From Fibrobacterota bacterium (GTDB lineage: Bacteria > Fibrobacterota > Fibrobacteria > UBA11236), in contig JAHFCH010000004.1 in NCBI GenBank assembly GCA_023249635.1, positions 13,730 through 77,729 of the forward strand: 64,000 nt of DNA, read 5' to 3'. Every line of letters starts with the position of its first letter. Within the stretch, counting starts at the first letter, position 1. Below the pieces are notes generated by a model. That model saw only the letters and a program-made list of their open reading frames with translations, had not been told where the DNA came from and searched no databases. The position numbers and the translations under genes are program-made. Shown here in pieces: positions 6,914 through 26,913 of this stretch.

Positions 6914-6919
6914 GACCAT

Positions 6920-11083: not shown

Positions 11084-11108
11084 ATTCATTCTCCTGTTCA
11101 TGGGTTGG

Positions 11109-12281: not shown

Positions 12282-12297
12282 ATCGGTTATCTACGAT
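12282..12297 (-). promoter_or_regulatory. Putative ArsR operator copy between arsR and the porin gene
   Basis: ATCGTAGATAACCGAT on the minus strand keeps the ATCG-N8-CGAT frame and the TACGAT half-site. No good -35 hexamer is nearby. Confidence 0.4.
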
Positions 12298-12396: not shown

Positions 12397-12741
12397 TCAT
12401 GAAATAACGGAATGAAAACTCTGAGCTGTAGTGATCAACCCATGGAGCGCAATCTGGAAAATCCCCCAAAACTCCGAAAAGGTTCCGCGACTTAAGGAAA
12501 AAAAGGATTTAGGCCCAAAAGTCCTCACCTCAATCAACCCCGAATCGGACAAATCCCGCAAATGGCGCGAGACCGTTGACTGGGCGAGAGGCATCCGATC
12601 CACAATTTCCGAACAGCTTATGGAGTCGTATTGAGCAATGAGCGTGAGGATTTCCAGACGCGCAGGGTGCGAAAGCGCCTTTGCGAAAGATGCAGCCTTT
12701 TGGCTCGCCGCGGGGAATACGGACTTCTTGCTGAGCGCCAC
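12397..12741 (-). CDS. ArsR/SmtB-family regulator lacking the As(III)-binding cysteines
   Basis: LSHPARLEILTLI and LAQSTVSRHLRDL form the HTH. There is only one Cys (SISCSEIV). It has no CxC, no CYC and no C-terminal CC. The GTG start lies 7 nt after the -10 hexamer. Confidence 0.85.
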   Translation of the reverse strand: MALSKKSVFPAASQKAASFAKALSHPARLEILTLIAQYDSISCSEIVDRMPLAQSTVSRHLRDLSDSGLIEVRTFGPKSFFSLSRGTFSEFWGIFQIALHGLITTAQSFHSVIS

Positions 12742-12936: not shown

Positions 12937-13458
12937 ATGGAAAAGGCAAGCGCCGGGAGTTGTTGCACGACACCCTCGGAATCCCCGCTAAAGCACATGC
13001 AATCCTCAGTGCAATTCAAGGGTGCGATGCGCCCGCACATCAGCATCAACGTAGCGGACGTGTTACGTTCCGTGGAATTCTACCAGGCCCTGTTCGGTCA
13101 GAAGCCGGTAAAGACGAAATCCGACTACGCGAAGTTCGAACCCGAAAATCCTCCTGTGAACTTCGCAATCAACCAAGTCGATGTTCCCGGCAAGCGTGAT
13201 GGCCATTTCGGCATCCAGGTCAAGTCGAAGAAGGCCGTGCAGGATTTCGTGGAGCGCTTCCGGAAGACCGGAGTCAAGATCGAGGAAACCGAAAGCGCCG
13301 TGGCCTGCTGCTATTCGGTTCAAGACAAAGTGTGGCTCACCGATCCCGACGGAAACCATTGGGAGGTCTTTGTCGTAACCGAGAAGGAAGCCGACGAAGG
13401 GTGCGGCGTGACTTGCGTCTGTTACAATGCCGAAACCGGCGGCTGCGACTGGTCTTAG
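12937..13458 (+). CDS. arsI: ArsI C-As lyase (VOC/glyoxalase-fold Fe(II) dioxygenase), copy 1
   Basis: AAGGAG lies 6 nt upstream. The motifs PHISINV, DYAKF, GHFGIQV and VACCYSVQDKVWLTDPDGNHWEVFVV give the vicinal CC and the His/His/Glu pattern I recall for ArsI. The C-terminal tail is Cys-rich (CGVTCVCYNAETGGC). Confidence 0.85.
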   Translation: MEKASAGSCCTTPSESPLKHMQSSVQFKGAMRPHISINVADVLRSVEFYQALFGQKPVKTKSDYAKFEPENPPVNFAINQVDVPGKRDGHFGIQVKSKKAVQDFVERFRKTGVKIEETESAVACCYSVQDKVWLTDPDGNHWEVFVVTEKEADEGCGVTCVCYNAETGGCDWS

Positions 13459-13505
13459 ATCCGAAAACACGGGCATAAGCAAACACCCAAGAAAAGGAAT
13501 AGCGA

Positions 13506-14015
13506 ATGAAAAGCATATGGGAACGTGTCGCGGAATCGGAGAAGGTCGAGAACGACAGCGCTGTCGACTTCCCTACCGATAGCCGCATGCATGTCAGCCT
13601 CAACGTCTCAAACCTGGAAGAGTCGGCCAAATTCTACCGCGTGCTGCTCAACCAGAATCCAAGTAAGGTCAAAGAAGGGTACGTCAAGTTCGAGTCGGTC
13701 GAGCCCGCCATCAATCTAACCTTGAACGATTTCCCCAACGAGACCTCGACGGATGGCCACTTCGGAATCCAAGCCAAAGGGACGGAAGTCATCATGGCAA
13801 ACTACGACCGCTTCAAGGCCAGCGGCTTCAAAATCACCACCGAAGACGATATCGAGTGCTGTTACGCGGTTCAATCCAAAATCTGGGTGGCCGACCCGGA
13901 CGGGAACCGGTGGGAATTATTCGTGACCACCGCCCCTGAAGCGGAGGAAGGTTGCGGTCCCGAGTGCATTTGCCATCGGGAGTTCGAACGCAGTTACGTC
14001 ATCGAGGGCAAGTAA
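13506..14015 (+). CDS. arsI: ArsI C-As lyase, copy 2
   Basis: The motif set is the same as copy 1: MHVSLNV, GYVKF, GHFGIQA and IECCYAVQSKIWVADPDGNRWELFVT. The tail reads EEGCGPECIC. Confidence 0.85.
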   Translation: MKSIWERVAESEKVENDSAVDFPTDSRMHVSLNVSNLEESAKFYRVLLNQNPSKVKEGYVKFESVEPAINLTLNDFPNETSTDGHFGIQAKGTEVIMANYDRFKASGFKITTEDDIECCYAVQSKIWVADPDGNRWELFVTTAPEAEEGCGPECICHREFERSYVIEGK

Positions 14016-14063
14016 GCGAATTTTTCCCGAATCCAATTCTAAACATCCAACAAGGAGTCCATC

Positions 14064-14333
14064 ATGAAATTGAACAACATCAAATCCGTCAATGAGACCA
14101 AGAAAGGCGTTTCCGTCCATCTAGGCGGCGATATCGAGGTCGATAAGGTGAAGGCCATGGTCGCAAAATGCGGCACCGGAACCTGCAGCTGCTGCGGCCC
14201 CGAGTTCGTCCAAGCCCTCCAAGGCATCGACGTCGACGGGAAAGACGGAAGCGTAACCATGACTATCAAAGGCCCGGTTACCAAGGACGTCATTTCGGAA
14301 AAGCTCGCCATCTGCGACTGCTATAACACATGA
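14064..14333 (+). CDS. Small Cys-rich protein of unknown family (89 aa)
   Basis: AAGGAG lies 7 nt upstream. The protein has a KCGTGTCSCCGPE cluster and a C-terminal ICDCY. It has no signal peptide and matches no family I recognise. Confidence 0.6.
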   Translation: MKLNNIKSVNETKKGVSVHLGGDIEVDKVKAMVAKCGTGTCSCCGPEFVQALQGIDVDGKDGSVTMTIKGPVTKDVISEKLAICDCYNT

Positions 14334-14340
14334 ATAACCG

Positions 14341-14366
14341 TAGGGAAGCGCGCGCCTCCCTATTTT
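14341..14366 (+). terminator. Hairpin plus T-tract after the Cys-rich gene (terminator or attenuator)
   Basis: TAGGGAAG-CGCGCG-CCTCCCTA (one mismatch) is followed by TTTT, 8 nt after the stop at 14333. Confidence 0.5.
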
Positions 14367-14433
14367 CACAACCCGCGCAGGCATTGCCTCCGCCCAACAA
14401 TGACGGGGAGGGAAGCTCCCGGAGAAAGGAATT

Positions 14434-15408
14434 ATGAGTCAAAAAGTAGCCGAGAAAACAGACAAGCACGCATCAGTCGAGGAACTGTACAGCACCGCTG
14501 CAAAGGCGCCCCAACCCGGGCTATGCTGCCCCAAGCCCTACATGAACGAAATGACGGCCCACATCCCCAAGGAAGCCTTCGAATTCAACTACGGTTGCGG
14601 GAGCCCCGTCCTCAAAGCCGGGATCAAGGCCGGGGACACCGTAGTGGATCTCGGATCCGGAGTCGGGATTGACTGCTTCGTAGCCGCCAAGCTCGTAGGG
14701 CCCAAAGGCAAGGTGATCGGAATCGATCTCACCGAAGACATGCTTGCGAAGGCCAACAAATATAAAGCCATCGTCGCCCAAAACCTGGGATACGATGTGG
14801 TGGAATTCCGCAAGGGTCTGATCGAATCCATTCCGCTCGAAGCCCAATCCGCCGATGTCGTCCTCTCCAACTGCGTCGTCAACCTGTCCCCGGACAAGGA
14901 AAAGGTCCTCAATGACGTCCGTCGCGTACTGAAGATCGGCGGCCGCGCCGTGATCTCGGACATCGTAAGCGATCGCGATGTGGAACAGGTCCATCAGGAT
15001 GACAAGAAGCTATGGGCGGAGTGCTATACCGGCGCGCTTTCCGTGAAGGCGTTCCTGGAGGCGTTCAAGAAGGCCGGCTTCTACGGACTCTCCCAACTCG
15101 CCGAAACGGCATGGCAAGAAGTCGAAAGTTACAATTTCGCGTCCATCACCGTGGAAGCGTTCAACTATCCCAAGAGCTCGTGCTGCGGAGCACTCGATCA
15201 TTTCGCCGTTTATCTCGGGCCGTACGAATCAGTTGCGGACGAAGATGGCCACCAATTCCCCCGGTTCAAGGCGGTCCCGGTCTGCGCAGAGACCGCGTCA
15301 CGACTGGCTGGGAGCCCGTTCGAATCCAACTTCGTCGTGGCCTTCGCGGGTCGCGAACTCAAACCCGACGCCAATTCATGCGCCCCTGGGGGAGCCTGCT
15401 GCGGCTAA
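14434..15408 (+). CDS. Second, divergent ArsM-like SAM methyltransferase with C-terminal extension
   Basis: The N-terminal region has GLCCPKPY and NYGCGSP. The SAM motif is VVDLGSGVGIDCF, followed by SNCVVNLSPDK and WAECYTGA. An extra roughly 100 aa ends in SSCCG...CAPGGACCG. Confidence 0.75.
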   Translation: MSQKVAEKTDKHASVEELYSTAAKAPQPGLCCPKPYMNEMTAHIPKEAFEFNYGCGSPVLKAGIKAGDTVVDLGSGVGIDCFVAAKLVGPKGKVIGIDLTEDMLAKANKYKAIVAQNLGYDVVEFRKGLIESIPLEAQSADVVLSNCVVNLSPDKEKVLNDVRRVLKIGGRAVISDIVSDRDVEQVHQDDKKLWAECYTGALSVKAFLEAFKKAGFYGLSQLAETAWQEVESYNFASITVEAFNYPKSSCCGALDHFAVYLGPYESVADEDGHQFPRFKAVPVCAETASRLAGSPFESNFVVAFAGRELKPDANSCAPGGACCG

Positions 15409-15418
15409 GCCGGATGCG

Positions 15419-15452
15419 GGTATCCAGGGCAGAGCGTTTTGCCCTGGATACC
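15419..15452 (+). other. Perfect 13-bp inverted repeat between the methyltransferase and the PLP enzyme genes
   Basis: GGTATCCAGGGCA, loop gagcgttt, then TGCCCTGGATACC. There is no clean U-tract after it. It could be an attenuator, an RNA processing or stability element, or a protein-binding site. Confidence 0.5.
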
Positions 15453-15498
15453 ATACCGCATTTGTTACCCACTTTTCACCGAATGGAAGACTGATTGC

Positions 15499-16821
15499 AT
15501 GTTCACCCAAGCCGAAATCAAGGAACTCCGCAAGGATTTTCCCGCCTTGAACCAGGTTAATCCCAAAAACGGTCGGCCACCGGTCTATCTGGATAACAGT
15601 TGCATGACCATGAAGCCCTCGGCCGTTGCCGAAGCGGAATGGGACTATAACACCAAATACCCGGCCTGTGGGGGGCATCGGGGTAGCTATTGGTTCGCTG
15701 AAATCGTGCATGAAAAGGTCGAAGCCGCCCGGGCAGCGCTCGCATCTCTAATCAAGGCACCGGCAGCGAAAAGTTCCGAAGGGAAACCTCTTTACCCCAT
15801 CATCTTTACCCGGAACGCGACAGAAGGTTTGAATCTAGTGGCCTCTACCCTGGGTCTTATGCCCGGTGAAACCGTCCTTATAACCGACAAAGAACACAAT
15901 TCCAACCTGTGCCCCTGGCAGGAATTCGAGAAGCGAGGCGGCAAAGTCATCATCCTTGCCACCAAGGCGGACAACACGTTCGACATGCCTGCCTTCAAGG
16001 CCGCCCTGGCAAAAGACCGCTCCATCAAACTCGTCTCCCTCAACCACAGCTCAAACCTCGACGGGGTTACCAACCCTCTCCAACAAATCGTTAAGGCCGT
16101 TCGCGATACGGAAAAGAAGCAGGCCAGGAATATCTTTATCGCCGTTGATGGCGCCCAAAGCCTCCCCCATCTGCCGTTGAATCTTGGCGAACCCGAGGCG
16201 CCTGGCTTCCTCGACGTCGATTTTTTCGCCGGCTCCATCCATAAAATGTTAGGCCCCTCAGGCATCGGATTCCTCTATGGCAAGCCGGAACTTTTAGACT
16301 GCCTCCCGCCGTACATGGTCGGAGGGTCGACCATATACGAAACCTCGGCCTACCATCGACCGGTTTATGCCGAATGGCCCGCGCGATTCGAAGCGGGCTT
16401 GCAAAATTACGGTGGGATCATCGGTGCGGGTGCGGCGGTCAAATACCTTACCTCCATCCTGCCCCGCATCAAAGGCTATGAAAACCATTTGAACGGGATC
16501 CTGACCGATGTCCTGAAACCTCTGCACGCGGCCGGGAAAATCCGCATCCTCGGGCCCGAAGATGCCCACCAGCGGGGGGGGGTCCTTACCCTGCTGGCGC
16601 CGGAACGCCCGGAAGGAGATCGGATGCGGGCGCTGCGGGAAAAATCATGGCAGCACAACCTCATGTATCGAACCGGCCATTTCTGCGTTGACGTTTGGTT
16701 CTCGACCCGTCAGGACAAGCTCTATCCCGCTTACACGCCGATCCGCCTGTCGGCCTACTTCTACAACACCGAATCCGAAGTCGAGACAACCGCCAAGGTC
16801 ATCCGGGAAATATTCGCTTAG
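15499..16821 (+). CDS. Class-V aminotransferase, cysteine desulfurase / selenocysteine lyase-like (SufS/CsdA-like)
   Basis: Internal ATG of track ORF 15439-16821. The PLP lysine is in FFAGSIHKMLGPSGIGFLYG. The active-site loop is YRTGHFCVD (compare RTGHHCA of SufS). The N-terminal motif is RKDFPAL. Confidence 0.85.
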   Translation: MFTQAEIKELRKDFPALNQVNPKNGRPPVYLDNSCMTMKPSAVAEAEWDYNTKYPACGGHRGSYWFAEIVHEKVEAARAALASLIKAPAAKSSEGKPLYPIIFTRNATEGLNLVASTLGLMPGETVLITDKEHNSNLCPWQEFEKRGGKVIILATKADNTFDMPAFKAALAKDRSIKLVSLNHSSNLDGVTNPLQQIVKAVRDTEKKQARNIFIAVDGAQSLPHLPLNLGEPEAPGFLDVDFFAGSIHKMLGPSGIGFLYGKPELLDCLPPYMVGGSTIYETSAYHRPVYAEWPARFEAGLQNYGGIIGAGAAVKYLTSILPRIKGYENHLNGILTDVLKPLHAAGKIRILGPEDAHQRGGVLTLLAPERPEGDRMRALREKSWQHNLMYRTGHFCVDVWFSTRQDKLYPAYTPIRLSAYFYNTESEVETTAKVIREIFA

Positions 16822-16829
16822 GAACAATC

Positions 16830-17630
16830 ATGCCCACCAAGACTCTCCCCCACCCCCTCACGGCAGACCCATTCGATCGGACGAAACGCCGACTCTTTGA
16901 ATTGTACCGGATGGGAAGCAAGCCCTATCATGCTTGGTTCCATGGCTATGCCGAAATCACGGCCCGGTGCAGCAACAACAATCTCCATGCCTATGGCCTA
17001 TATGTAGGCATCGAAAAAGGCGTCATTACCCGAGTCGGCTACACCAAAGGCGCAGGTAAAGCCCGCAATGCGGCATCCACCGATGAGGTTCACGCTTCGG
17101 TTGCCGCTTTCTGCGGCTATGTCAAGGGGAAACGCATTGAAGACGCCTTGGCTGTGGATATGAAATCCATCCTGAGCCACTACGGCTGCTGGAATGGCCA
17201 CTCACCGGGCCTTCTGAAAACCTTGGAGCGTTCGCGACCGGAAGACCTGGTCCAGTTCAAGGCTACGACTCCGGATGCTCTGTTCAGCCTCGCTTTGGGT
17301 GGAGGCCTCCCTTTCGTTCTCCTGAACTGGGCGATTCTCAATTACACCATCAAGAACGAACTCGTCAATATCGTCGGGGATGCGGCACAGCCCTTCGTGC
17401 GGTTCAAGGACGTAAACCAGGCCCTTAAGTTGGTCAATGCCCTGAAGAATCACCCGGCCCTCGGGGCTCAACGAAGAGCGATGGAAATCGGCGTACGCGC
17501 GTTGCAATTCAATTCCGTGGATGATTCCAGCTTAAGGCTTGCATACCAACGGCATACCTTCGACGGATTCGCGAAGAACGCGAACGCCAAGGGATTTTAC
17601 ATCCTCGATCGATTCCTGTTGCTCAAGTGA
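16830..17630 (+). CDS. Degenerate IscU/NifU-N-like domain protein with an unknown C-terminal half
   Basis: ATG 16830 lies 8 nt after the desulfurase stop. By eye, ARCSNNNLHAYGLYVGIEKGVITRVGYTKGAGKARNAAS...FCGYVKGKRIEDAL aligns to IscU APACGDVMKLQIKV..GIIEDARFKTYGCGSAIASSS...WVKGKSLDEA. The second scaffold Cys is replaced by Ala. Confidence 0.5.
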   Translation: MPTKTLPHPLTADPFDRTKRRLFELYRMGSKPYHAWFHGYAEITARCSNNNLHAYGLYVGIEKGVITRVGYTKGAGKARNAASTDEVHASVAAFCGYVKGKRIEDALAVDMKSILSHYGCWNGHSPGLLKTLERSRPEDLVQFKATTPDALFSLALGGGLPFVLLNWAILNYTIKNELVNIVGDAAQPFVRFKDVNQALKLVNALKNHPALGAQRRAMEIGVRALQFNSVDDSSLRLAYQRHTFDGFAKNANAKGFYILDRFLLLK

Positions 17631-17658
17631 ACCCCGGCAATTCTGAAAGGACAGGGAA

Positions 17659-20600
17659 ATGAAAAAGAGCTTTCTCGTCGATTTCTCAATCAAGCGACCC
17701 AAGACCGTCATTGGCCTTACCATGGCGCTTACCGCCATAATGATGCTTCCCTTCCCGAAGGTGAAGCTGGATACCAATCCAAAAAATATGCTGCCGCCCG
17801 ATGCGGAAGTCCGCATTTGGAATGCCGAGGTGGAGAAAACCTTCGGTCTTTACGAAGATCTGATCGTCGTAGGCGTGACCAACCCGGCAGGGGTGATGAA
17901 CAATACCACCCTTAAAAACATTTCCGTATTGACCGATGGGATCCAGAAAATCACGGGGGTGGCCGCCGCCGATGTATCCAGCTTGGTCAACGTGGATGAT
18001 GTCTCCGCGAATGGCAAATCCCTGGAAGTCAAACCGATCGTCAGCGGACTGCCATTGGAGGAAAAGGATCTGGCTGAAATCGGCGCCTCGGCGATAGCCA
18101 ATCCGCTGCTTGCCGAAAAACTGCTTTCCAAGGACGGAAAGACCACCGCCGTTTATGTCCCCATGGAAAAAGGCGCCAATGGAAAAGTGATCGCGGAAGC
18201 CATCAAGTCCATGATCGCGAAACTGCCGGTTTCCGGAAAAGGGGGTGACAAATTCTTTGTCACAGGCGACCCGGTAGCCAGGGACACTTTCGGCGATTTC
18301 ATGTTCAAGCTGATGGCGGTATTTTCCCCGGTGTCCTGCTTTCTCATGATCGCAGCCATGTACCTGATGTTCCGAAGCATCCCGCTGTGCATCAGCATGA
18401 TGGCCGTCTCGAATATCGCGATCATCTGGAGCGTTGGCCTGGTAATCGCTTTGGGGTTCCCCATCCATCTGATGGCCTCAATGGCCCCGGTCTTTCTGAT
18501 GGCTATCGCGACCGATAGCATCCACATTTTCACGGAGTTTTACTTCCGTTATGCAGAAACCCGGGACCGTAAGCGCGCAATCCTGGAGACCATGGCGGTT
18601 GTAAGCCATCCCGTGAAGTACACCGCATTGACGACTGCGGTGGCTTTTTCCGTGCTCCTATTCATGAAAATCATACCGGTCCAGGTATTCGGAGGCATGA
18701 TCGCCTTCGGCACCATCGCGCTTCGGCTTCTCAGCTTCTCATTCATACCCGCCATCATGGCCCTGCTTGGTGAGAAATCCCTGCTGAAAGTCGCCGCGAA
18801 ATCCCAGGCTTCCGCGGGGCGCCCGGCCGGATTCTTGCGTGGTCTGGCAATGGCCGGCGCCGGCAATCCCCGCCTTGTCGTAGGCGTTGGATTGATATTG
18901 TGCGCGCTGTCCATCGTGGGGATTTCCCGGGTCGTCGTGAACAACAACATGGTCGAATGGTTCAACAAGAAAAATGAAGTCCGAATCGCCGATATGGCGC
19001 TGAATAAAAGCCTCGGGGGCACCTCGCTAGGGTACATGGTTGCCATTGCCGATCCCGGCCAAGGTGAATACATGAAGACCCCCGAGGGACTGCGGTTCCT
19101 TGCGGGACTTCAGCGTAGGTTGGAAAACATCCCGGAAGTCGGCAAGACCAGTTCCATCGCCGACATCGCATCCCGCATCAATCTTGTGTTGCACGGGAAC
19201 GACCCCGTCTACGCAGGCATACCTAAGACCAAGGAAGAAGCCGGGCAATTCCTCTTTCTTTTCTCAATGTCCGCCAAACCGTCGGACGTGAAAAACCTGG
19301 TGGATGACTCCTACGGGAAGGCGAACGTCTGGATCCAGATGAAAACCTGGGATGCTAAGGCGATGCGGTCGGTGATACGTGAATCCCAAGCCTATTTGAG
19401 GGAAAATCCTGCGCCCGTACAATTGAAACCCGCGGGTATCGCCTACTTCAACCTGGCGTGGAACGACGAAGTCCTTTACGATATGTTGAAGGGCTTCGTG
19501 TTGGCCATCTGCGTGGTTTATTCCATCCTCGTATTGAATTTCCGTTCCTTCAAGTGGGCCTTGATAAGCTACGTACCCCTCCTCTTCACTATTCTCCTTA
19601 TCATCGGAATGGTGGGCTTCGTCGGCAAGGACCTCGACATGCCCATCTCCGTCTTGTCCTGCCTTTCCCTGGGCATGGCGGTCGATTTCGCCATCCATTT
19701 CATCAACCGCTTCCGGCAGAAGATGGCTGACAGCGGGTACACGGGGACCGCTGCCGAAGTCAGGGAATGCCTCCTCTGGACCGCTTCGCGGCCGGGTCGC
19801 GGCATTCTGCGGAACGCAATCCTTTTCGGATCGGCATTCCCGGTGATGATGCTTTCTCCCCTGACCCCATATGTCACGGTGGGTGCTTTCATCCCCAGCA
19901 TGATGATTCTAAGCGCATTCCTGACTCTACTGTACCTTCCGGCCCTAATCGTGCTCCTCCGCAAATGGCTATTCAACGGGCAACAAGCGGGACGCGCGGG
20001 AAAACCCGCGGCAGCGGAAAATCTTTCGGTTTCCGCCATGAAAATGGGTCTGTTGCTTATTGGCTCAATCGCGATTCCGCTTCATTCCGAAGAAAACCCG
20101 GCCGCAATAGTGAAGGCTTACCAGAACTCCTTCTATTACCAAGGCTCAACCTTTCGCGGGCGCCTCAAATTGAGCCTGATTGATGCGGACGGAAAGGCCC
20201 GTACCAAAGACATGACCATGGTTCGCGCCACCACGGTTCCCGGAGCGGATCAACGGTACTTCATGTATTTCCATGCCCCAGGCGACGTAAAGGGCATGTC
20301 CTTCCTGGTTTTCAAGTACCCGAACAAGGAAAGCGATCGTTGGCTGTTTATCCCCAGCGTTGACATGGTGCAGCGCATCGCCGCACGGGATGCGGGCTCC
20401 AGTTTCGTGGGATCCGATTTCTCCTATCAGGATATCTCCGGACGGTCAATGGAGGCTGACGAATTCTCCTATGTGAAAGAGGAATTAGTGGCCGGAAAGA
20501 AGTGCCAGGTAGTAGCCAGCGTTCCAAAAAGCAGCGCTGGCTATACCAAGAAGACGTCCTGGATTGACGTGGAGACGTTCCTCCCCATTAAGGAGGAGTA

Positions 20601-20817
20601 TACAGACGTTCAGGGTAAAGTCTTCAAGCGATTCACGGCCGATAGCATTGCCGATCTTTCCGGCCACCCGTTAGTCGTAAGGGGAACTATGACCAACCTC
20701 AAGACCAATCACTCTTCCAAATTCGAATTCAGCGATGTTGCATATGACTTTAAAGCCAACGGGGACGAATTCACTGAGAGGGCCCTCCGGAATCCGCCTC
20801 GGGGTTGGATCAATTGA
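17659..20817 (+). CDS. MMPL/RND-superfamily exporter (COG1033-like, 12 TM) fused in frame to a LolA-like 'outer membrane lipoprotein-sorting' domain
   Basis: The 1052-aa ORF has two 6-TM bundles with large periplasmic loops. From about aa 794 it reads FRGRLKLSLIDADGK...VKGMSFLVFKYPNKESDRWLFIPSVDMVQRIAARDAGSSFVGSDFSYQDISGR, the LolA-like (DUF4367/PF17131-type) signature as I recall it. Confidence 0.8.
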   Translation: MKKSFLVDFSIKRPKTVIGLTMALTAIMMLPFPKVKLDTNPKNMLPPDAEVRIWNAEVEKTFGLYEDLIVVGVTNPAGVMNNTTLKNISVLTDGIQKITGVAAADVSSLVNVDDVSANGKSLEVKPIVSGLPLEEKDLAEIGASAIANPLLAEKLLSKDGKTTAVYVPMEKGANGKVIAEAIKSMIAKLPVSGKGGDKFFVTGDPVARDTFGDFMFKLMAVFSPVSCFLMIAAMYLMFRSIPLCISMMAVSNIAIIWSVGLVIALGFPIHLMASMAPVFLMAIATDSIHIFTEFYFRYAETRDRKRAILETMAVVSHPVKYTALTTAVAFSVLLFMKIIPVQVFGGMIAFGTIALRLLSFSFIPAIMALLGEKSLLKVAAKSQASAGRPAGFLRGLAMAGAGNPRLVVGVGLILCALSIVGISRVVVNNNMVEWFNKKNEVRIADMALNKSLGGTSLGYMVAIADPGQGEYMKTPEGLRFLAGLQRRLENIPEVGKTSSIADIASRINLVLHGNDPVYAGIPKTKEEAGQFLFLFSMSAKPSDVKNLVDDSYGKANVWIQMKTWDAKAMRSVIRESQAYLRENPAPVQLKPAGIAYFNLAWNDEVLYDMLKGFVLAICVVYSILVLNFRSFKWALISYVPLLFTILLIIGMVGFVGKDLDMPISVLSCLSLGMAVDFAIHFINRFRQKMADSGYTGTAAEVRECLLWTASRPGRGILRNAILFGSAFPVMMLSPLTPYVTVGAFIPSMMILSAFLTLLYLPALIVLLRKWLFNGQQAGRAGKPAAAENLSVSAMKMGLLLIGSIAIPLHSEENPAAIVKAYQNSFYYQGSTFRGRLKLSLIDADGKARTKDMTMVRATTVPGADQRYFMYFHAPGDVKGMSFLVFKYPNKESDRWLFIPSVDMVQRIAARDAGSSFVGSDFSYQDISGRSMEADEFSYVKEELVAGKKCQVVASVPKSSAGYTKKTSWIDVETFLPIKEEYTDVQGKVFKRFTADSIADLSGHPLVVRGTMTNLKTNHSSKFEFSDVAYDFKANGDEFTERALRNPPRGWIN

Positions 20818-22064
20818 AATCGATTGTTCCTTTGGCCGCCTTAAAAGTGGCGGCTGTGCTTGCGTATGGCCAACCCGTGGACGTTTCGGGCGGACTCAAT
20901 GCCGTCTATTCCGCCAGGGTGGGAAATCATCCGGAACCCAATCCGGTGTCAGGTTCATTCCTGGCGGGAGAGGAAATTCTAAGGCTGAAGGCGGAGGCAC
21001 GATCGGAATCCGGTAGCGGTGGGTTTATGGCCCTCGTGGAAAACACCTACGACAACCTTAGCCAAGATAACCGATTGGATATCCGTGAGGCATACGCCAC
21101 CCTTCCATTAGGCGCATTCGATATCCGGGCCGGCAAACAGATCATCACGTGGGGAACCGGAGATTTCCTCTTTATCAATGATTTCTTCCCCAAGAACTAC
21201 GCCGCATTCTACGCTGGCCTACCCATTGATCATCTAAAGGAGGGCCTGACCGCACTAAGGATTTCGGGCTATAGTTCAGCGGCGAATCTTGAAATCGTAG
21301 CCACCCCATTTTTCCAGGAAAACATTTTCCCCGGCCAGGATCGATTCATTTTGCCTAAAGATCCCGCGGGCGGCCTCGCCCCGCCCCTCATTCATCCTTC
21401 CCTCCGGTTTGAAAACGGAGAAGTGGCGATTCGCCTTTACCGCAACATCCTGGGTTGGGATGCGGGCCTTTATGGGTACACCGGGCATAACCGACAGCCC
21501 ACCTTGCAGATTTTACCTGCGGATACGGGGGCCAATCTTCGGATCGCCTTCCCTCAAATTGCCTCCGGGGGAATCAGCCTTACCGGCAGCCTACCCCTGG
21601 CCGTGATCAACCTGGAAGCCGGATTTTCCCATCCGTTCGCCGATGGCGCGTGGAAGGCCCCGCTTCTCCCGGATCAAGAATTGAAATTTCTCGGCGGATT
21701 AAAAGCCGGACAGACAGGGGCATGGTCACTCGGCGTCCAATATTATGCCGAGCTCAACGAATTCAATCCCAATACCGCGAACATGCGATCCGGGAATCCT
21801 TTTGTGCCGGAAAATATCCACCAAATATTGACATCCAGTCTGGACTTGAGCCCGGGTTACCAGACTTTGCGAATCTATTGCTTCGCCTACTACGACCTTA
21901 CCTACCGGGAATCCTTAGTCATGCCGGAAATATCCTACCAGGTTACCGATCGGGCGACGATCGCTCTCGGCGGTCGCGGCTATTACGGAAACGGTGATCC
22001 AAGAAGCTTTGGTTACTATGGCTCGAATGATTGTGTGTTCACCCGCGTCTCGTATAGTATCTGA
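20805..22064 (+). CDS. Putative outer-membrane beta-barrel partner of the exporter
   Basis: TTG starts at 20805 or 20814; the latter overlaps the upstream stop as TTGA. The signal-like N-terminus is KSIVPLAALKVAAVLAYG. The body is rich in Y/G/N alternating segments. The C-terminus is ...FTRVSYSI. I cannot assign a family. Confidence 0.5.
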   Translation: MDQLKSIVPLAALKVAAVLAYGQPVDVSGGLNAVYSARVGNHPEPNPVSGSFLAGEEILRLKAEARSESGSGGFMALVENTYDNLSQDNRLDIREAYATLPLGAFDIRAGKQIITWGTGDFLFINDFFPKNYAAFYAGLPIDHLKEGLTALRISGYSSAANLEIVATPFFQENIFPGQDRFILPKDPAGGLAPPLIHPSLRFENGEVAIRLYRNILGWDAGLYGYTGHNRQPTLQILPADTGANLRIAFPQIASGGISLTGSLPLAVINLEAGFSHPFADGAWKAPLLPDQELKFLGGLKAGQTGAWSLGVQYYAELNEFNPNTANMRSGNPFVPENIHQILTSSLDLSPGYQTLRIYCFAYYDLTYRESLVMPEISYQVTDRATIALGGRGYYGNGDPRSFGYYGSNDCVFTRVSYSI

Positions 22065-22068
22065 ACCC

Positions 22069-23358
22069 ATGAATATGCGCGCAACGCCCTATTTCCAAAC
22101 CCAGGTGATCGGCTGTGGGCCGGGCGCTTTGGGGTTGGCAGTTGCTGCCGACAGGTTGAAACTGCTGGACTCCCTGCTTGGGCAAGGGATCGCTTTCTTG
22201 GAAAAGGCGCCGAATCCGAAGGAACTATTCAACCAGCGGTTTCCCTTTCTCATCGAATCCAATTCTATTGCCGACGACTTTTTCAAATCCATCGATAGCG
22301 AAGGCGCCTTCTCGGAAACCTGCCGGAATGAAAATTCCAGGCTCGTATTCTCACGAGAAGGCCGCACCCTACCCCTTGAATTGATAAAAGCCTTCATGAA
22401 CGACTTAACCAAAGCTTTCCTGGAAAAATGCTGCTTCTCCGGGGCCAGCGGAATCTTTTTTGGCCGGGAAATCGATCATCTTCAAATCGGTGAAGATGGG
22501 TCTGTAACGAGCTTCAATCGTTCCGGAGCGCCTATCGCCAAGTCCATGTACGCAGTGCTGGCGACTGGGGCGGGAGAAAACCTGCCTTTACATGCGCATG
22601 GTCCAGGCAATCTTTTCCATTTCCTTCCTTCCGGTGAGGTTTTATCCGGAAAATTCGCTGAGATCTCCCGGGAAATAGCCTCCGGTAAGCCAATCATCAT
22701 TCTCGGCGGTTCCCATAGCGCCTTTTCGGTTGCGCTTTTAATCCTTGATCGCTTCGGTTCCCGGCTCTCCACCGGCCAAATCCAACTTTACCACCGCGGC
22801 GTCTGCCTTTACTTTACCTCCCAACGCGAAGCTTCAGAATCCGGCTACTTCCTTCCCGGAGCGCATATTTTCCGCTCTACCGGGGAGGTGAATAAATTCA
22901 ATGGCTTGCGAGGAAGGGCGAAAAACCTCTATCAGCAAGTTCAATCCGGCATAGAAATGCGCGTCTCCGTAAAAGGCAAAAACGCATACGCGGATTTCCT
23001 CGCCAAAGCGGAATTCCCCGCCCTTATCATTCAGGCTACCGGATATAAGACTCGCCGAATCGGAATCATAAACCACATGGGCGTGCCCATCCGTAATCTG
23101 CATTCCAATAAGAACTGCATGGTCGATTCCCAATGCCGCCTACTCGATTCCTCGGGGGAAATCCTGCCCAACCTCTTCGGCATCGGCATCGGATATCCCC
23201 GCCTGAGCGAGAACAAGGAATTGAAAATCGGAGTCAATTTCTTCCATGGGCCGGATGGGGAAACCATCGTGCGGCAGATCGTATCGCCGTCAAAGACTAC
23301 CGTCTCCGCTGAGACTGCGCTTGCATCAAACTCAAACCTGAATGGAGTCCCAAGTTGA
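22069..23358 (+). CDS. FAD/NAD(P)-dependent flavoprotein monooxygenase, N-hydroxylase (SidA/IucD/PvdA)-like or FMO-like
   Basis: Internal ATG 4 nt after the upstream stop. The motifs are VIGCGPGALGLA (GxGxxG), AVLATGAGE, IIILGGSHSAFSVA (second dinucleotide motif, GGxxSA) and IIQATGYK (ATGY motif). Confidence 0.65.
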   Translation: MNMRATPYFQTQVIGCGPGALGLAVAADRLKLLDSLLGQGIAFLEKAPNPKELFNQRFPFLIESNSIADDFFKSIDSEGAFSETCRNENSRLVFSREGRTLPLELIKAFMNDLTKAFLEKCCFSGASGIFFGREIDHLQIGEDGSVTSFNRSGAPIAKSMYAVLATGAGENLPLHAHGPGNLFHFLPSGEVLSGKFAEISREIASGKPIIILGGSHSAFSVALLILDRFGSRLSTGQIQLYHRGVCLYFTSQREASESGYFLPGAHIFRSTGEVNKFNGLRGRAKNLYQQVQSGIEMRVSVKGKNAYADFLAKAEFPALIIQATGYKTRRIGIINHMGVPIRNLHSNKNCMVDSQCRLLDSSGEILPNLFGIGIGYPRLSENKELKIGVNFFHGPDGETIVRQIVSPSKTTVSAETALASNSNLNGVPS

Positions 23359-23474
23359 ACAAGGACAAACTCTCCAAGGCAATCGGCAACTCCCCGGAGG
23401 CGAACAGCTCTGTAACCTGGTCGAATAACCTGAAACGCGGGCGGGTTCCCGGACCCAGGATGAAGGAAAACAAA

Positions 23475-24656
23475 ATGCTTCCCGATACGTTGGGGGGCTC
23501 TACCATCGCAGTGCATGGGGGAACCTATGAGGATCCGATCACCGGTGCGGTCGGGACTCCTATTTTCCAAAGCAGCACCTTCAACTTTTCCAAGCACACG
23601 TACGATTCATTCGCACAAGGCCTGATTCGGGATATCCCGACCTATACGCGGTATGGCAACCCTACCGTTTGGAGCACCCAGGAAAAGATTTCCCAGCTTG
23701 AAAACGCGGAGAGCACCATTCTGTTTTCCTCGGGAATGTCCGCAATCACCACGACGCTGGTAGGCCTTACGAATCGTGGGGGGCATATCATCAGTTCCTT
23801 TGACGTGTACGGGGGAACGTATAACTTCCTCCGGGAGGATATCCATCAGTTGGGGCGTGAGACGACTCTCGTGGATGGCACCGACCTTGCCGCCGTCGAT
23901 GCCGCGATAAAACCCAATACCCAGGTCCTTTTTTTCGAAACACTTTCCAACCCGCTCCTGAAGGCGCTTCCGCTACGCGGCCTCGCCTCGCTGGCCAAAG
24001 CCAGGAATCTTCTGCTTGTCGTCGACAACACCTTTCTCTCCCCTATCTGCCTCCGTCCCCTCGATGAAGGGGTTGATATCGTCCTGCACAGCTGTTCCAA
24101 ATACATGAATGGCCACAGCGACCTAATTGCCGGATCGGTCTCCGGATCAAGAAAATATGTCGACCGTATCTGGTCGCAAATGCTCAAGTTCGGCGGCAAC
24201 GTGAATCCGCTTTCCGCCTTTCTTTTGGAACGCGGCCTGAAAACGCTTGCTTTACGCATGCAGGCACATGTCTCCAATTCCAAGCAGCTGGCCGCGTTCC
24301 TTGCGAATCATCCCAAGGTCACACGCGTGCATCACCCGTCCTTGCCCAACTACGAATATCCGTGGATTCAAGAATATTGCCGGAACGGGTACGGAGGGAT
24401 GGTCAGCTTCGAAGTGAAAGGCGGGAACGAAGCGGCGCTGGCTTTACTCACCCATTTGAAAATCCCGCTCGTCGCCACAAGTTTGGGCGGCGTAGAGTCC
24501 TTGATCTCTTTGCCTTTCAATACGTCCCATTCCTTTCTAACCGAAAAGCAACGCCAACAAATCGGCATCATGCCGGGTCTTATCCGCCTCTCCGTGGGCG
24601 TCGAGAACATCCAGGACCTCACGGCCGATTTCGATACGGCGCTCGGTCAGATTTAA
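23475..24656 (+). CDS. Cys/Met-metabolism PLP enzyme (cystathionine gamma-synthase / gamma-lyase / O-acyl-homoserine sulfhydrylase family)
   Basis: The PLP lysine is in HSCSKYMNGHSDLIAG. Other motifs are AVHGG...PIFQSSTF, YTRYGNPT and VVDNTF. I chose ATG 23475 because AAGGAA lies 6 nt upstream. Alternatives are ATG 23460 or TTG 23355, which overlaps the upstream stop. Confidence 0.85.
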   Translation: MLPDTLGGSTIAVHGGTYEDPITGAVGTPIFQSSTFNFSKHTYDSFAQGLIRDIPTYTRYGNPTVWSTQEKISQLENAESTILFSSGMSAITTTLVGLTNRGGHIISSFDVYGGTYNFLREDIHQLGRETTLVDGTDLAAVDAAIKPNTQVLFFETLSNPLLKALPLRGLASLAKARNLLLVVDNTFLSPICLRPLDEGVDIVLHSCSKYMNGHSDLIAGSVSGSRKYVDRIWSQMLKFGGNVNPLSAFLLERGLKTLALRMQAHVSNSKQLAAFLANHPKVTRVHHPSLPNYEYPWIQEYCRNGYGGMVSFEVKGGNEAALALLTHLKIPLVATSLGGVESLISLPFNTSHSFLTEKQRQQIGIMPGLIRLSVGVENIQDLTADFDTALGQI

Positions 24657-24689
24657 AGCAGGACACCCTCCAAACCATCGGGAGCAAAG

Positions 24690-25949
24690 ATGAAAAACGG
24701 TTTCAATGTCAGCGGCGTCAGCGAAATGGTCCATGAGTTCAAGGCGAAACCCCGGGAAGCACAGTTGGATTTTTCGGCCCAGGCCTCCTGGCGCGAGGAC
24801 CGATATGACCTTACCATCCAAACCCTTAATGCGGGAACCATCCGGATTCCGCGGGATTTCGGCCTTGAAGTCCGTCCGTTCAATGAAGTGATTAACGACA
24901 TTCCTACTCCGCAAGAACTTTTGATCCTCGCGTTGGGGAGCTGCGTCCTTGTCACCTATGTCCAGGGGTGCAGCGCCAGAGGCATTACCTTGACCAGCCT
25001 TGAAGTGCATTCGGAAGGGCTGGTGCCAAGCGGGGAAGGTACGTTTGGGCAAAAAGCCACCGGACTTAAGCTCAAGGTCGACATCGATTGCGAAGGGGCT
25101 CCCGAAGCCATCAAGGAGATTGCCCAGTTCGCGGGCTGTTTCAGCCCCAATCACCGCACCTTTGTCGAAGACAACAATCCTAGTGTGGAACTATCCATTA
25201 AGGATGGCTCGAGTCGATCCTTCCTGGGCGAATTGAATCCGGAAGCTCCCACGTCGCGGAAGCAGGAAAGCCCAACCGGTGGCCTTCATCCGGTAATCGC
25301 CAAGTCCATTTGGAGATACGGGCTGCAAATCGATTCGCGACTCGAATCCGAGTCTCCGTTCCCTCCGAATTCCCATTCGACGAAAGGCCAGAAACCCGTT
25401 CACAAGTTAAAGGTGGATCAGCCGAAGCAGCTTGGCGGTATCGATCTGGCGCCGAATCCGCAAGAATATCTCCTCGCGGCGATGGCCGGCGAATTGGCCG
25501 CTAATTTTGTCCGACTCGCAAGGAGAGAGGGTTTGAACATCAAATCCGTTTCGGTAAACGGTTCAGGTCGCCTCGATTTACGGGGCATCCTGAATGTGGC
25601 GCCCGTCCCGGTCAAAATGCACAACCTGAGGTTCCATTTGGAAGTGGTCTCGGATGCCTCACAGGAAATCCTGAAACGGATAGCGGGAGATGCTCTCAGC
25701 GACGCGACATCCTTTGCCACCATATCCCAAGCGAACGAGATCGCCGTATCCGTGAAAATGGGCGGTAAACCGCTCCTGGAGTTCACAAGCAATATGCGTC
25801 ACGTGGAAATGTTTCTGACGAACATGCGCGAAAAGATGCGAAAGGCCCAGGAAGAGAAGGAAAAATCCGCCGCTCCCGAAACGGTTCCTTTCTATAAGCG
25901 CGTATTTCCCTTCGGGAAGCTGAAAGGCATGAAGCAGGGCGCGCAATGA
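24690..25949 (+). CDS. Tandem OsmC/Ohr-fold protein (two OsmC-like domains in one chain)
   Basis: Domain 1 has TPQELLILALGSCVLV and FAGCFSPNHRTF, so both peroxidatic and resolving Cys positions are present. Domain 2 has NPQEYLLAAMAGELAANF and no Cys. Confidence 0.7.
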   Translation: MKNGFNVSGVSEMVHEFKAKPREAQLDFSAQASWREDRYDLTIQTLNAGTIRIPRDFGLEVRPFNEVINDIPTPQELLILALGSCVLVTYVQGCSARGITLTSLEVHSEGLVPSGEGTFGQKATGLKLKVDIDCEGAPEAIKEIAQFAGCFSPNHRTFVEDNNPSVELSIKDGSSRSFLGELNPEAPTSRKQESPTGGLHPVIAKSIWRYGLQIDSRLESESPFPPNSHSTKGQKPVHKLKVDQPKQLGGIDLAPNPQEYLLAAMAGELAANFVRLARREGLNIKSVSVNGSGRLDLRGILNVAPVPVKMHNLRFHLEVVSDASQEILKRIAGDALSDATSFATISQANEIAVSVKMGGKPLLEFTSNMRHVEMFLTNMREKMRKAQEEKEKSAAPETVPFYKRVFPFGKLKGMKQGAQ

Positions 25950-25973
25950 ACCCGAAACGGGAGGGGATTTGAG

Positions 25974-26315
25974 ATGGCCCAAAGCAAGAAATCGGAATTC
26001 GGGATTAAGGATCAGAAGTTGGCCGACTTCGCCAAGGCCTTTTCACATCCCGCTCGGGTCTCGATATTGCGGATACTGGCCAAGCAGGGAACATGCATTT
26101 GCGGTGAACTCGTAGACGCGTTGCCTTTGGCTCAATCCACGGTCTCCCAGCATATCCGGGAATTGAAGGACGCCAACATTATTACCGGTGAAGTGGAGGG
26201 CCCCAAATCCTGTTATTGCATCAACTGGGCCGTGCTGGAAGATCAATGGAAGGCCTTTAACTCCATCCTACATGAGATGGAAGCCCATCAAGCCAAGCTT
26301 TGCTGCAAGACCTAA
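25974..26315 (+). CDS. arsR: ArsR/SmtB-family repressor (CIC type with C-terminal CC)
   Basis: FSHPARVSILRIL, CICGE, LAQSTVSQHIRELK, CYC and terminal LCCKT. Confidence 0.9.
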   Translation: MAQSKKSEFGIKDQKLADFAKAFSHPARVSILRILAKQGTCICGELVDALPLAQSTVSQHIRELKDANIITGEVEGPKSCYCINWAVLEDQWKAFNSILHEMEAHQAKLCCKT

Positions 26316-26347
26316 TACCTAGCCAGGAGACCATCACTTTGAAGAAG

Positions 26348-26725
26348 ATGCTTTTTGTTTGCGTAGAGAATTCAAACCGAAGCCAGATGTCCCAGGCCTT
26401 CGCGATTATCCATGGTGGACAATCCGTAGAAAGCTACAGCGCCGGTTCACGGCCCTCCGGGAAGGTGAATCCTAAAGCGATCGCATCAATGCGGGAATTG
26501 GGCTATGACCTCTCCCGGCATGCTTCCAAGAGCCTTGAGGAAGTGCCTGACCTTGAATACGATGCCGTTGTGACAATGGGCTGCGGGGATGCCTGTCCGA
26601 ACATCCGTGCGAAGCGGCGTATCGATTGGCAGATTCCCGATCCGCGGAATATGGAACCCAATGAATTCCGCAATGTCCGCGATCTGATTCAGGGTAAAGT
26701 TCGAGACCTAATCTCTGAAATTTAG
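26348..26725 (+). CDS. arsC: Arsenate reductase, LMW-PTP type (second copy)
   Basis: MLFVCVENSNRSQMSQAF is the CX5R loop, and VTMGCGDACP is also present. It is a close paralogue of 4981-5379. A TTG at 26339 with AGGAGA upstream is an alternative start. Confidence 0.9.
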   Translation: MLFVCVENSNRSQMSQAFAIIHGGQSVESYSAGSRPSGKVNPKAIASMRELGYDLSRHASKSLEEVPDLEYDAVVTMGCGDACPNIRAKRRIDWQIPDPRNMEPNEFRNVRDLIQGKVRDLISEI

Positions 26726-26813: not shown

Positions 26814-26913
26814 CTCGTTGGCACACTACGCTCTCAGGAAGGGAGGGCATAGGCAATTCGCCCCACGCCCTCCCTGCGATAACCCGGCCCCCAACCTCGG
26901 CCGGCTACCGAAT

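Follow-up and report, generated by a model that had tools for sequence, protein, structure and literature searches.

The closest described relatives of the gene block reported here, thirteen genes at 12937-26725 of a 64-kb window of Fibrobacterota DNA (the window is the whole stretch that was analyzed, and all coordinates refer to it), are the arsenic resistance (ars) operons that act on organoarsenicals. The resemblance consists of two ArsI genes that pass the family model, a methyltransferase with the cysteines of ArsM, ArsR, ArsC, an aquaglyceroporin and a palindromic operator. However, the described ars operons lack a cysteine desulfurase, an IscU-fold partner, an 89-aa Cys-rich protein and an exporter of the MMPL/LolA/barrel type, all of which are present in the block. 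The known ars efflux proteins are ArsB, Acr3, ArsP, ArsK or ArsJ, none of which is encoded in the block, and the block methyltransferase differs from those of ars operons in scoring below the curated ArsM cut-offs and in having a Cys-rich tail.

Two biosynthetic systems are also related. The arsinothricin cluster arsQML of Burkholderia gladioli is a biosynthetic unit embedded in an ars operon (PMC8552651). The C-terminal half of the block methyltransferase is closest to the arsinothricin-type ArsM model NF040538, and a second methyltransferase in a related locus, L014, matches only this model. Nevertheless, the score of the block protein (202.6 bits) is far below the cut-off of 500 bits, the ArsL radical S-adenosylmethionine (SAM) enzyme and the ArsQ permease are missing, family scans found no radical-SAM domain in any block protein, and the pyridoxal phosphate (PLP) enzyme of the block is γ-lyase-like and lies outside the conserved core. 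In Streptomyces, the secondary-metabolite cluster for bisenarsan (bsn) is inducible by arsenic and contains arsenic resistance and regulator genes; in this cluster, the carbon-arsenic (C-As) bond is made without SAM enzymes by BsnM, which resembles the synthase of 5-enolpyruvylshikimate-3-phosphate (EPSP), with BsnN, BsnJ and a polyketide synthase (PKS) (PMC12159101). The block has none of these and would instead be based on SAM and persulfide. A 2025 review lists methylation, ArsS, ArsL and bsn as the only bacterial routes to C-As compounds.

A literature search found no description of the cluster, nor of a desulfurase/IscU-like pair, an 89-aa protein or an MMPL/LolA/DUF1302 exporter in ars, arsQML or bsn systems; no enzyme system for arsenic thiolation was found in the literature searched. 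This agrees with an initial annotation of the window, made from its letters alone, which presented the block as a candidate undescribed system whose eight genes outside described arsenic families were not known to have been described together as an arsenic module. In its regulation and in four of its gene families the cluster is an ars island. Its recurrence in many uncultured bacteria suggests that the combination of genes probably represents a so far undescribed transformation of arsenic. It has probably escaped description because the relatives that could be traced are all from metagenomes.

The block is composite. A conserved core, formed by two ArsI proteins, the 89-aa Cys-rich protein, an ArsM-like methyltransferase, a SufS-type desulfurase and a 266-aa IscU-fold protein, is combined with an exporter and an importer and is followed by a borrowed tail of three lineage-specific genes, which encode a flavin monooxygenase, a methionine-γ-lyase-like PLP enzyme and a tandem OsmC protein. 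Two new protein families are represented, one by the 89-aa five-cysteine protein and the other by the IscU-fold putative sulfur acceptor. In the explanation that we prefer, the block would be the main operon of a horizontally acquired island and would encode an ArsR-controlled pathway, in which arsenic is converted into a sulfur-bearing, methylated, hydrophobic species that is expelled across both membranes. This explanation is tentative and falls somewhat short of being probable.

All thirteen genes are intact and lie on the plus strand downstream of a divergent arsR gene. The distances between them are, in order, 47, 48, 100, 90, 8, 28, -4, 4, -4, 33, 24 and 32 nt. The open reading frame (ORF) map and the computed distances, none of which exceeds 100 nt, thus confirm the co-directional block described initially, together with its 8-nt gap at 16821/16830, its TTGA overlap at 20814-20817 and its 4-nt gap at 22064/22069. 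One correction concerns arsC, which more likely starts at ATG 26348 (MLFVCVENSNRS, containing the CX5R loop) than at TTG 26300. The start of the barrel gene is ambiguous (20805 or 20814). The block contains 21 terminator-like hairpins compared to 19.3 expected from shuffled sequence. Because terminators are not enriched, transcription of the block as one long transcript is plausible.

The recurrence of the block was followed through the desulfurase, since scans with a profile of the 266-aa protein gave only one locus in genomes and two in metagenomes. Nine contexts of the desulfurase subfamily were read: the window, the groundwater metagenome contig L001/L008, the Aquisalimonadaceae metagenome-assembled genome (MAG) L007, the Myxococcota MAG L014, and L009, L012, L013, L015 and L016. 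The genes for ArsI, the ArsM-like methyltransferase, the desulfurase and the IscU-fold protein are present in the same order in all nine, which represent several phyla. The desulfurase pair directly follows the methyltransferase in eight contexts; in L007, pst and exporter genes are situated between them. A small Cys-rich gene lies among the ArsI genes, again in eight of the nine, with none in L007 as far as that locus was fetched. The number of ArsI paralogs is one in L007 (as far as fetched), two in the window and L008, and three to four elsewhere. The desulfurase/IscU-like pair was met only beside ArsI and ArsM genes. MMPL and LolA-like genes adjoin the core in five contexts (window/L008, L007, L012, L013 and L014), and the barrel homolog was confirmed in four of these, the L012 contig ending just past the LolA-like gene. 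Pst genes adjoin the core in four (L007, L008, L013 and L014).

On the groundwater contig L001/L008 the stretch running from cysE to the terminal arsR is complete and its gene order unchanged, with protein identities of 60-93% and with different flanks. Between the window and L008, identities reach 85-93% for ArsI, the 89-aa protein, the methyltransferase, the desulfurase, the MMPL protein, the PLP enzyme and ArsR4, but only 60-71% for the barrel, the flavoprotein, OsmC, ArsR3 and the porin. This uneven divergence suggests mosaic recombination or relaxed constraint. Other versions of the locus have additional genes, among them further ArsM-type methyltransferases (making up to three of this type), DUF924, Rdx, an extracytoplasmic function (ECF) sigma factor and an oxidoreductase of the molybdopterin type. 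The last of these, found near the core in L012 and L014, was considered as Arr or Aio and rejected, as its scores are far below both models.

The same comparisons bear on whether unrelated operons came to lie side by side by chance. The tail trio does occur elsewhere without ars genes, and homologs of the flavoprotein are found in unrelated contexts. Nevertheless, such a juxtaposition is hardly credible and is already contradicted by the synteny of the whole block in a second organism, where the flanks differ and the proteins are 60-93% identical, by the synteny of the core in nine of nine contexts, and by the short gaps (at most 100 nt), the lack of terminator enrichment and the operator common to the island promoters. 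The link to arsenic proposed in the initial annotation is borne out, as the full set stands beside ars genes in L001/L008 and the distant loci stand beside ArsI and ArsM. For the desulfurase pair and the usual exporter (15.5-22 kb) no recurrence without ars genes was seen in seven distant contexts. The trio at 22.0-25.9 kb does recur without them, in the locus L003, which speaks in part against the initial proposal. The proposal that the thirteen genes form a single module has to be given up, because the trio is missing from the other core-bearing loci and is present in L003, which is not an arsenic locus. The family assignments given initially to the eight genes outside described arsenic families all hold, as judged from family profiles, residue alignments and fold matches.

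The desulfurase retains the PLP lysine and the catalytic cysteine of its class, as seen in an alignment with 4q75 (SIHKMLGPSGIG and RTGHFC, the latter corresponding to the RxGHHC loop). It scores below the curated SufS cut-off (TIGR01979, 270.8 compared to 475 bits) and also matches the SclA model. The subfamily is sharply bounded: about 17 clusters have identities of 54-61%, with the next at 46% or less, and the scores fall from 552-633 bits to 349 bits or less. The partner protein has no sequence match in Pfam, NCBIfam or the PDB. Nevertheless, when its AlphaFold model, with a predicted local distance difference test (pLDDT) score of 77, was compared to the PDB using Foldseek, the top 50 fold matches were all IscU, SufU or NifU, with a target-normalized template modelling (TM) score of about 0.65. 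Of the three cluster-ligand cysteines only Cys47 (ITARCS) is retained, the other two motifs being changed from GC to GA and from HC to NW. The name "degenerate IscU-like" given to this protein initially was therefore appropriate. Cys95 is a new invariant site, and a helical extension of 130 residues has no structural match.

The family of the 266-aa protein is small, with only 14 matches among 1.84 billion representative proteins. An exhaustive search was needed to find these, as a word-indexed homolog search gave only two; an exact-sequence look-up of the window's own protein returned nothing. In two of the matches, P0027 and P0046, the IscU-fold protein is fused to the desulfurase; fusion proteins of about 720 aa are encoded in the Myxococcota MAG L014 (10001-12178) and in one ENA contig (P0027). 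The modeled fold suggests that the 266-aa protein is probably a persulfide acceptor. The pair thus has the organization of SufS-SufU and IscS-IscU, with a type II desulfurase beside an IscU/SufU-fold partner and with fusions in some genomes. It differs from them in that the partner keeps only the first ligand cysteine and carries the helical extension, that SufBCD is absent and that the pair occurs only beside ArsI/ArsM.

Membership of the pair in the Fe-S assembly superfamilies could mean that it serves repair under arsenic stress. The pair would then rebuild Fe-S clusters or protein thiols and the MMPL/LolA/barrel proteins would remodel envelope lipids, neither of them touching arsenic directly. 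OsmC and CysE would fit a thiol-stress response, and MMPL/HAE3 relatives move lipids (the pump weakly matches HpnN and MmpL3). However, the IscU-fold protein retains a single one of the three cluster-ligand cysteines, none of the loci read contains partners of the SufBCD or IscA type, and the pair lies downstream of ArsI and the ArsM-like gene in nine of nine contexts and nowhere else, which is a tighter association than general repair predicts. A repair function is thus improbable.

Both ArsI copies score above the cut-off of the NCBIfam ArsI/CadI model NF041414 (116 bits). An alignment of the first copy with TcArsI (5c4p) shows that the His/Gln, His and Glu ligands of Fe(II) and the Cys-Cys substrate site are kept, in the motifs RPH, HFGI, ACCYSVQDKVW and WEVF. 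The second copy has the same metal ligands and the same Cys-Cys pair in the paralog alignment. The two proteins are thus predicted to be C-As lyases of trivalent organoarsenicals, which as a class are O2-dependent. In L009 and L012-L016, one or two extra ArsI-family paralogs precede the small Cys-rich gene. A paralog of class D, found outside the window, no longer has the Cys-Cys pair or the Glu ligand and can be presumed to lack catalytic activity.

The 89-aa protein matches no Pfam or NCBIfam family and has no real sequence-profile match in the PDB. Its orthologs occupy the same position in six more loci (L008, L009 and L012-L015), and in L016 this position is taken by a 99-aa gene that was not aligned. 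Judging from its cysteines, it is a probable As(III) carrier.

The block methyltransferase is below both curated cut-offs (219.5 compared to 263 bits for ArsM model NF008823; 202.6 compared to 500 bits for NF040538). Nevertheless, alignment with 4fr0 and 5evj shows that it keeps the As(III)-binding cysteines (C44, C72, C174 and C224 of CmArsM). These lie in the motifs YGCGS, SNCV and ECxTGA, with an additional GLCCPK at the N-terminus, and the cysteines are invariant across the subfamily. The tails of the methyltransferases in L007, L009 and L012-L015 extend over about 65-160 residues with repeated PCC (SPCCDP..PCCD..SPCCD). The tail in the window is short by comparison and has CAPGGACCG only. 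The many vicinal-cysteine motifs, in the 89-aa protein, the ArsI tails and the PCC tails elsewhere, suggest that arsenic may be passed from protein to protein.

The exporter consists of a fusion protein, in which an MMPL/HAE3-type resistance-nodulation-division (RND) transporter is joined to a LolA-like domain of the periplasm, and of a secreted protein. The two domains of the fusion protein score above the Pfam thresholds (PF03176, 103.4 bits; PF17131, 171.6 bits); TIGR00921 is matched with 174 bits, which is below its cut-off, and the HpnN and MmpL3 models are matched weakly. The MMPL and LolA-like parts are separate genes in L007 and L012-L014. A hydrophobic segment, MKMGLLLIGSIAIPL, which at 20150-20260 follows the last MMPL helix and precedes the LolA-like domain, looks like the kept signal anchor of a formerly separate LolA-like gene. 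The DUF1302-like secreted protein is probably an outer-membrane barrel, as predicted from its profile match, and its homologs follow the MMPL and LolA genes in L007, L013 and L014. HpnN-like MMPL/HAE3 exporters with LolA-like and DUF1302/DUF1329 partners belong to the same families and form the same trio. The block exporter differs from them in that the pump is fused to the LolA-like part and belongs to the same gap-free string of genes as the ars genes, downstream of the operator-bearing promoter. A comparable trio occurs in a Rhodospirillaceae MAG (L004-L006, 1500-7000), where a flavoprotein homolog (31% identity) lies by an MMPL gene, two LolA-like genes and a 421-aa gene, the set being contained in a natural-product cluster of nonribosomal peptide synthetase (NRPS), glycosyltransferase and radical-SAM genes.

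The steps of the preferred pathway can be outlined as follows. Arsenic would enter through the MIP channel or through the porin and PstSCAB and would be reduced by ArsC; these proteins belong to recognized families, and their substrates are presumed. As(III) would be kept on vicinal-cysteine carriers, namely the 89-aa protein and the Cys-rich tails of ArsI and the methyltransferase, a role assigned because the cysteines are invariant. The ArsI pair would act on incoming trivalent organoarsenicals by removing their carbon groups, and methylation of As(III) would be the task of the ArsM-like enzyme, as expected from their families and catalytic residues. The desulfurase would mobilize sulfur from cysteine, the supply of which would be boosted by the co-regulated CysE, and the persulfide would pass to Cys47 of the IscU-fold partner. 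This step is based on the class of the enzyme, the fold of the partner and the natural gene fusions. By elimination, the sulfane sulfur would then be added to a trivalent (methyl)arsenical, giving a pentavalent thio-arsenical, which would be exported by the MMPL pump, the LolA-like periplasmic domain and the DUF1302-like barrel, proteins of established families whose cargo is presumed. The exported product may serve detoxification or be a secreted weapon.

Delivery of the persulfide to arsenic is proposed because no other conserved core protein requires sulfur. It fits the partner's lost Fe-S ligands, the absence of SufBCD nearby and the operator-bearing operon with a cysteine-supply gene. Sulfane sulfur adds oxidatively to trivalent methylarsenicals to give neutral, lipophilic pentavalent thio-arsenicals, and such products would therefore suit the MMPL/LolA/barrel exporter. 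A private source of persulfide would permit thiolation in oxic cells, in which ArsI and the flavoprotein are workable and free sulfide is scarce. Persulfide mobilization, methylation and export of a hydrophobic cargo, all part of the chemistry proposed initially, are each backed by family membership of the predicted proteins.

Several observations weigh against this pathway. The specificity of an enzyme cannot be read from its sequence, and the sulfur acceptor has been assigned by elimination only. ArsI, which demethylates, and ArsM, which methylates, look antagonistic in one operon. ArsI and the flavoprotein need O2, but it is mainly from sulfidic settings that thioarsenicals are known. MMPL/LolA/DUF1302 systems generally transport lipid-like cargo, so that the cargo here could be unrelated envelope material. 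The exporter is missing beside the core in L009, L015 and L016, although these contigs are short or interrupted. The ArsR3 regulator by the block promoter has no arsenic-binding cysteines, making the inducer uncertain. Finally, all relatives that were traced are from metagenomes or MAGs of uncultured bacteria, so that no phenotype is associated with them.

Control by ArsR is suggested by a palindrome, ATCGT-N6-ACGAT, which occurs five times in the window, in each case in a promoter gap of the island, and nowhere else even when two mismatches are allowed (0.7 expected). The three copies at 12282, 12751 and 12821 are kept in L008, in intergenic DNA that has otherwise diverged. The palindrome is a candidate ArsR operator joining four transcription units in one regulon. 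Its presence in the island promoters is evidence, at the level of sequence, for placing the block in the same regulon as the canonical ars genes. All four ArsR proteins are above the NF033788 cut-off (62-72 compared to 55 bits). ArsR3 has one cysteine and is without the CxC and CC motifs of ArsR1, ArsR2 and ArsR4, and its effector may not be As(III).

The functional unit extends to the left of the block to include the porin-pstSCAB-cysE genes. The initial annotation included neither this extension nor the operator, nor the direct repeat described below. The minus-strand operon at 7063-12741 consists of arsR3, the 387-aa porin-like gene, pstS, pstC, pstA, pstB and cysE and is conserved in L008. 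The start of cysE is probably an ATG abutting the pstB stop, the two genes being translationally adjacent in both the window and L008; CysE is also found near the core in L015. The 387-aa secreted protein matches no Pfam or NCBIfam family and is probably an outer-membrane porin, as suggested by its signal peptide and C-terminus. The MIP-family protein at the left of the island is a probable As(III) channel, according to its family, and the left ArsC matches ArsC models below their cut-offs.

The composition of this regulon also bears on whether another soft metalloid (Se, Te or Sb) might be the substrate. The desulfurase would then be a selenocysteine lyase, methyl-selenides or -tellurides would be made and arsenic would be only a co-inducer. 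SufS-type enzymes are also selenocysteine lyases (according to database names, and the SclA model was matched), an OsmC domain matches an "OsmC-related (seleno)protein" model, genes of the Rdx family are found close to the core in L012 and L013, and ArsM enzymes can methylate other metalloids. However, an ArsI whose arsenic-binding Cys pair is intact is never missing, the island has two ArsC, the operator is common to the aquaglyceroporin, ArsC and canonical ArsM units, and Pst-type importers suit arsenate or phosphate and not selenium. A substrate other than arsenic is thus very unlikely.

The tail trio differs from the core in its distribution. Among the loci read it is present in the window, in L008 and in L003, and is absent from the other core-bearing loci. 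In L003 (1918-13558) it follows genes for a dehydroquinate synthase II (DHQS-II) and DeoC that are GriH/GriI-like and precedes two AMP-ligases and a halogenase-like flavoprotein; there is no ars gene in this locus. The PLP enzymes of the window and L003 are 63% identical. The trio seems, from its gene contexts, to be a portable cassette. It is probably a borrowed accessory that adds heteroatom oxygenation, extra release of thiol or sulfide and thiol-redox protection. More distant homologs of the flavoprotein (L010, L011 and L017) are in unrelated contexts and are uninformative about the trio.

The flavoprotein has no Pfam K_oxygenase or FMO match, and in the PDB its sequence profile finds nothing beyond the flavin adenine dinucleotide (FAD) motif. 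Its model (pLDDT 86.5) is most similar in fold to the N-hydroxylating class B monooxygenases SidA, DesB, KtzI and DfoA, with TM scores of only 0.53-0.58, and its motifs are GCGPG, GGSHSA and QATGY, where two-Rossmann-fold enzymes of this class have GxGxxG, the NADPH motif GxSxSA and ATGY. In the tandem OsmC protein, domain 1 keeps the conserved C85 and C150 and domain 2 has no cysteine. The PLP enzyme reaches no NCBIfam equivalog cut-off, and its nearest solved relatives are methionine γ-lyases, pointing to the release of thiol or sulfide. This does not support the C-As chemistry on an amino-acid skeleton that had been suggested initially. Formation of arsinothricin-like amino acids by the PLP enzyme, in a γ-replacement with arsenic as the nucleophile, was also considered and rejected, because the enzyme is 63% identical to one from a non-arsenic cluster, has γ-lyase relatives and lies outside the core, and because ArsL is missing.

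The occurrence of the trio in L003, a biosynthetic cluster of the 3-amino-4-hydroxybenzoic acid (3,4-AHBA) type, is one of several indications that the locus might itself be biosynthetic. Arsenate would then be imported deliberately by the porin and Pst, a sulfur-containing organoarsenical (an antibiotic or polyarsenical) would be secreted, and the ars genes would provide self-resistance and regulation, as they do in the clusters for arsinothricin and bisenarsan. This is rather unlikely. It is equally unlikely that the core is the first dedicated enzymatic route for placing sulfur on arsenic, with a private SufS/IscU-like persulfide relay supplying enzymes of the ArsM and ArsI types, within a biosynthetic cluster that secretes a hydrophobic S-organoarsenical. 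The product might in that case be a methylene- or sulfur-bridged polyarsenical of the arsenicin type, a class for which we know of no established biosynthesis. Production of such a compound would account for the block promoter's operator motif on the importer and cysteine-supply genes, for the dedicated two-membrane exporter, and for the up to four ArsI paralogs and three ArsM-type methyltransferases of other versions, which seem more than detoxification needs. There is precedent for arsenic-regulated biosynthetic clusters among ars genes (PMC8552651; PMC12159101). However, family scans of the block found no scaffold builder (PKS, NRPS, radical SAM ArsL/ArsS or EPSP-synthase-like BsnM). Furthermore, Pst in arsenic islands may equally serve phosphate uptake under competition by arsenate, and the conserved core is small and more like processing than assembly. 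The preferred explanation remains arsenic processing and export by an ArsR-controlled pathway.

The genes described above are contained in a low-GC island, with a GC fraction of 0.53 compared to about 0.62; at the left edge the fraction falls from about 0.65 to 0.54. A 24-bp direct repeat (23 of 24 positions identical) is situated exactly at both GC breaks and brackets 22.9 kb. Its 15-bp exact core occurs twice in the window, compared to 0.02 occurrences expected. The low-GC stretch being bracketed by the repeat, the 22.9-kb arsenic island was probably inserted as one unit. No integrase or transposase was seen within the island, no tRNA gene was found in the 64-kb window (rRNA genes were not searched for), and a search of PLSDB plasmids for relatives gave no match. 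The genes flanking the island are of generic Gram-negative types. Very long overlapping ORFs lie in the GC-rich DNA just to its right, at 26776-29205 (plus strand) and 26914-29130 (minus strand); the latter encodes 738 aa, is Ala/Lys-rich and weakly matches CarboxypepD_reg.

Table 1. Positions of the genes, palindromes and repeats of the arsenic island in the window.
Feature	Coordinates	Strand	Characteristics
Left 24-bp direct repeat	3981..4004		ACCCGGCCCCCAACC[C/T]CGGCCGG; island edge, coincides with GC drop
Operator-like palindrome	4207..4222		ATCGTAGCTTTACGAT; upstream of MIP-arsC
MIP-family channel, aquaglyceroporin-like	4230..4970	+	PF00230, 105 bits; TIGR00861
Low-molecular-weight (LMW) phosphatase-type arsenate reductase ArsC, left copy	5002..5379	+	PF01451; CX5R motif MLFVCIENSNRS
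ArsR1 repressor	5385..5720	-	CxC, CxC, C-terminal CC
Canonical arsenite methyltransferase ArsM	5745..6554	-	NF008823, 312.6 bits (cut-off 263); member
ArsR2 repressor	6575..6919	-	CxC and CC motifs
Operator-like palindrome	6923..6938		ATCGTAAATCTACGAT; upstream of arsR2-arsM-arsR1
Serine O-acetyltransferase (CysE/EpsC type)	7063..7689	-	NF041874, 201 bits (cut-off 150); last gene of pst operon
PstB (7686-8507), PstA (8534-9427), PstC (9424-10272), PstS-family (10250-11167)	7686..11167	-	Phosphate/arsenate-type ATP-binding cassette (ABC) importer
387-aa secreted protein	11109..12272	-	Signal peptide, C-terminal ...EFSY; heads pst operon; 71% identical in L008
Operator-like palindrome	12282..12297		ATCGGTTATCTACGAT; upstream of porin-pst-cysE; conserved in L008
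ArsR3, ArsR/SmtB regulator	12397..12741	-	Single cysteine; divergent from block
Two operator-like palindromes	12751-12766, 12821-12836		70 bp apart, in divergent arsR3/arsI gap
ArsI C-As lyase, paralog class A	12937..13458	+	NF041414, 132.8 bits; N-terminal CC, Cys-rich C-terminal tail
ArsI C-As lyase, paralog class B	13506..14015	+	NF041414, 126.8 bits
89-aa Cys-rich protein	14064..14333	+	Unnamed family, 5 invariant cysteines
ArsM-like SAM methyltransferase	14434..15408	+	324 aa; distinct subfamily, Cys-rich tail
Type II (SufS-like) cysteine desulfurase	15499..16821	+	Sharply bounded subfamily
266-aa IscU-fold protein	16830..17630	+	N-terminal degenerate IscU/SufU fold, helical C-terminal domain
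MMPL/HAE3-type RND transporter fused to periplasmic LolA-like domain	17659..20817	+	1052 aa
Secreted DUF1302-like protein	20814..22064	+	Weak PF06980 match (34.4 compared to 23.2 bits, partial profile); hydrophobic N-terminus/signal peptide
Class B flavin monooxygenase-like protein	22069..23358	+	429 aa, N-hydroxylase fold; lineage-specific accessory
Cys/Met-metabolism PLP enzyme	23355..24656	+	PF01053, 400.1 bits; accessory
Tandem OsmC protein	24690..25949	+	419 aa, two OsmC stretches; accessory
ArsR4 repressor	25974..26315	+	CxC, CxC, C-terminal CC; 92% identical in L008
LMW-phosphatase-type arsenate reductase ArsC, right copy	26348..26725	+	Absent from L008
Right 24-bp direct repeat	26882..26905		Other island edge

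Arsenic in rice paddies, groundwater and the gut includes thiolated methylarsenicals, which are toxic and mobile and whose origin is, as far as is known, ascribed to an abiotic reaction with sulfide. The cluster is a concrete candidate for enzymatic arsenic thiolation, which recurs, unnamed, in many uncultured bacteria. If the proposed pathway is correct, the cluster would provide a genetic handle on arsenic thiolation, marker genes for surveys and a pathway that can be tested, and arsenic efflux would gain an envelope exporter of the RND/LolA type besides its known routes. Should the product be a secreted antibiotic, the few organoarsenical natural products known from bacteria would be joined by another.

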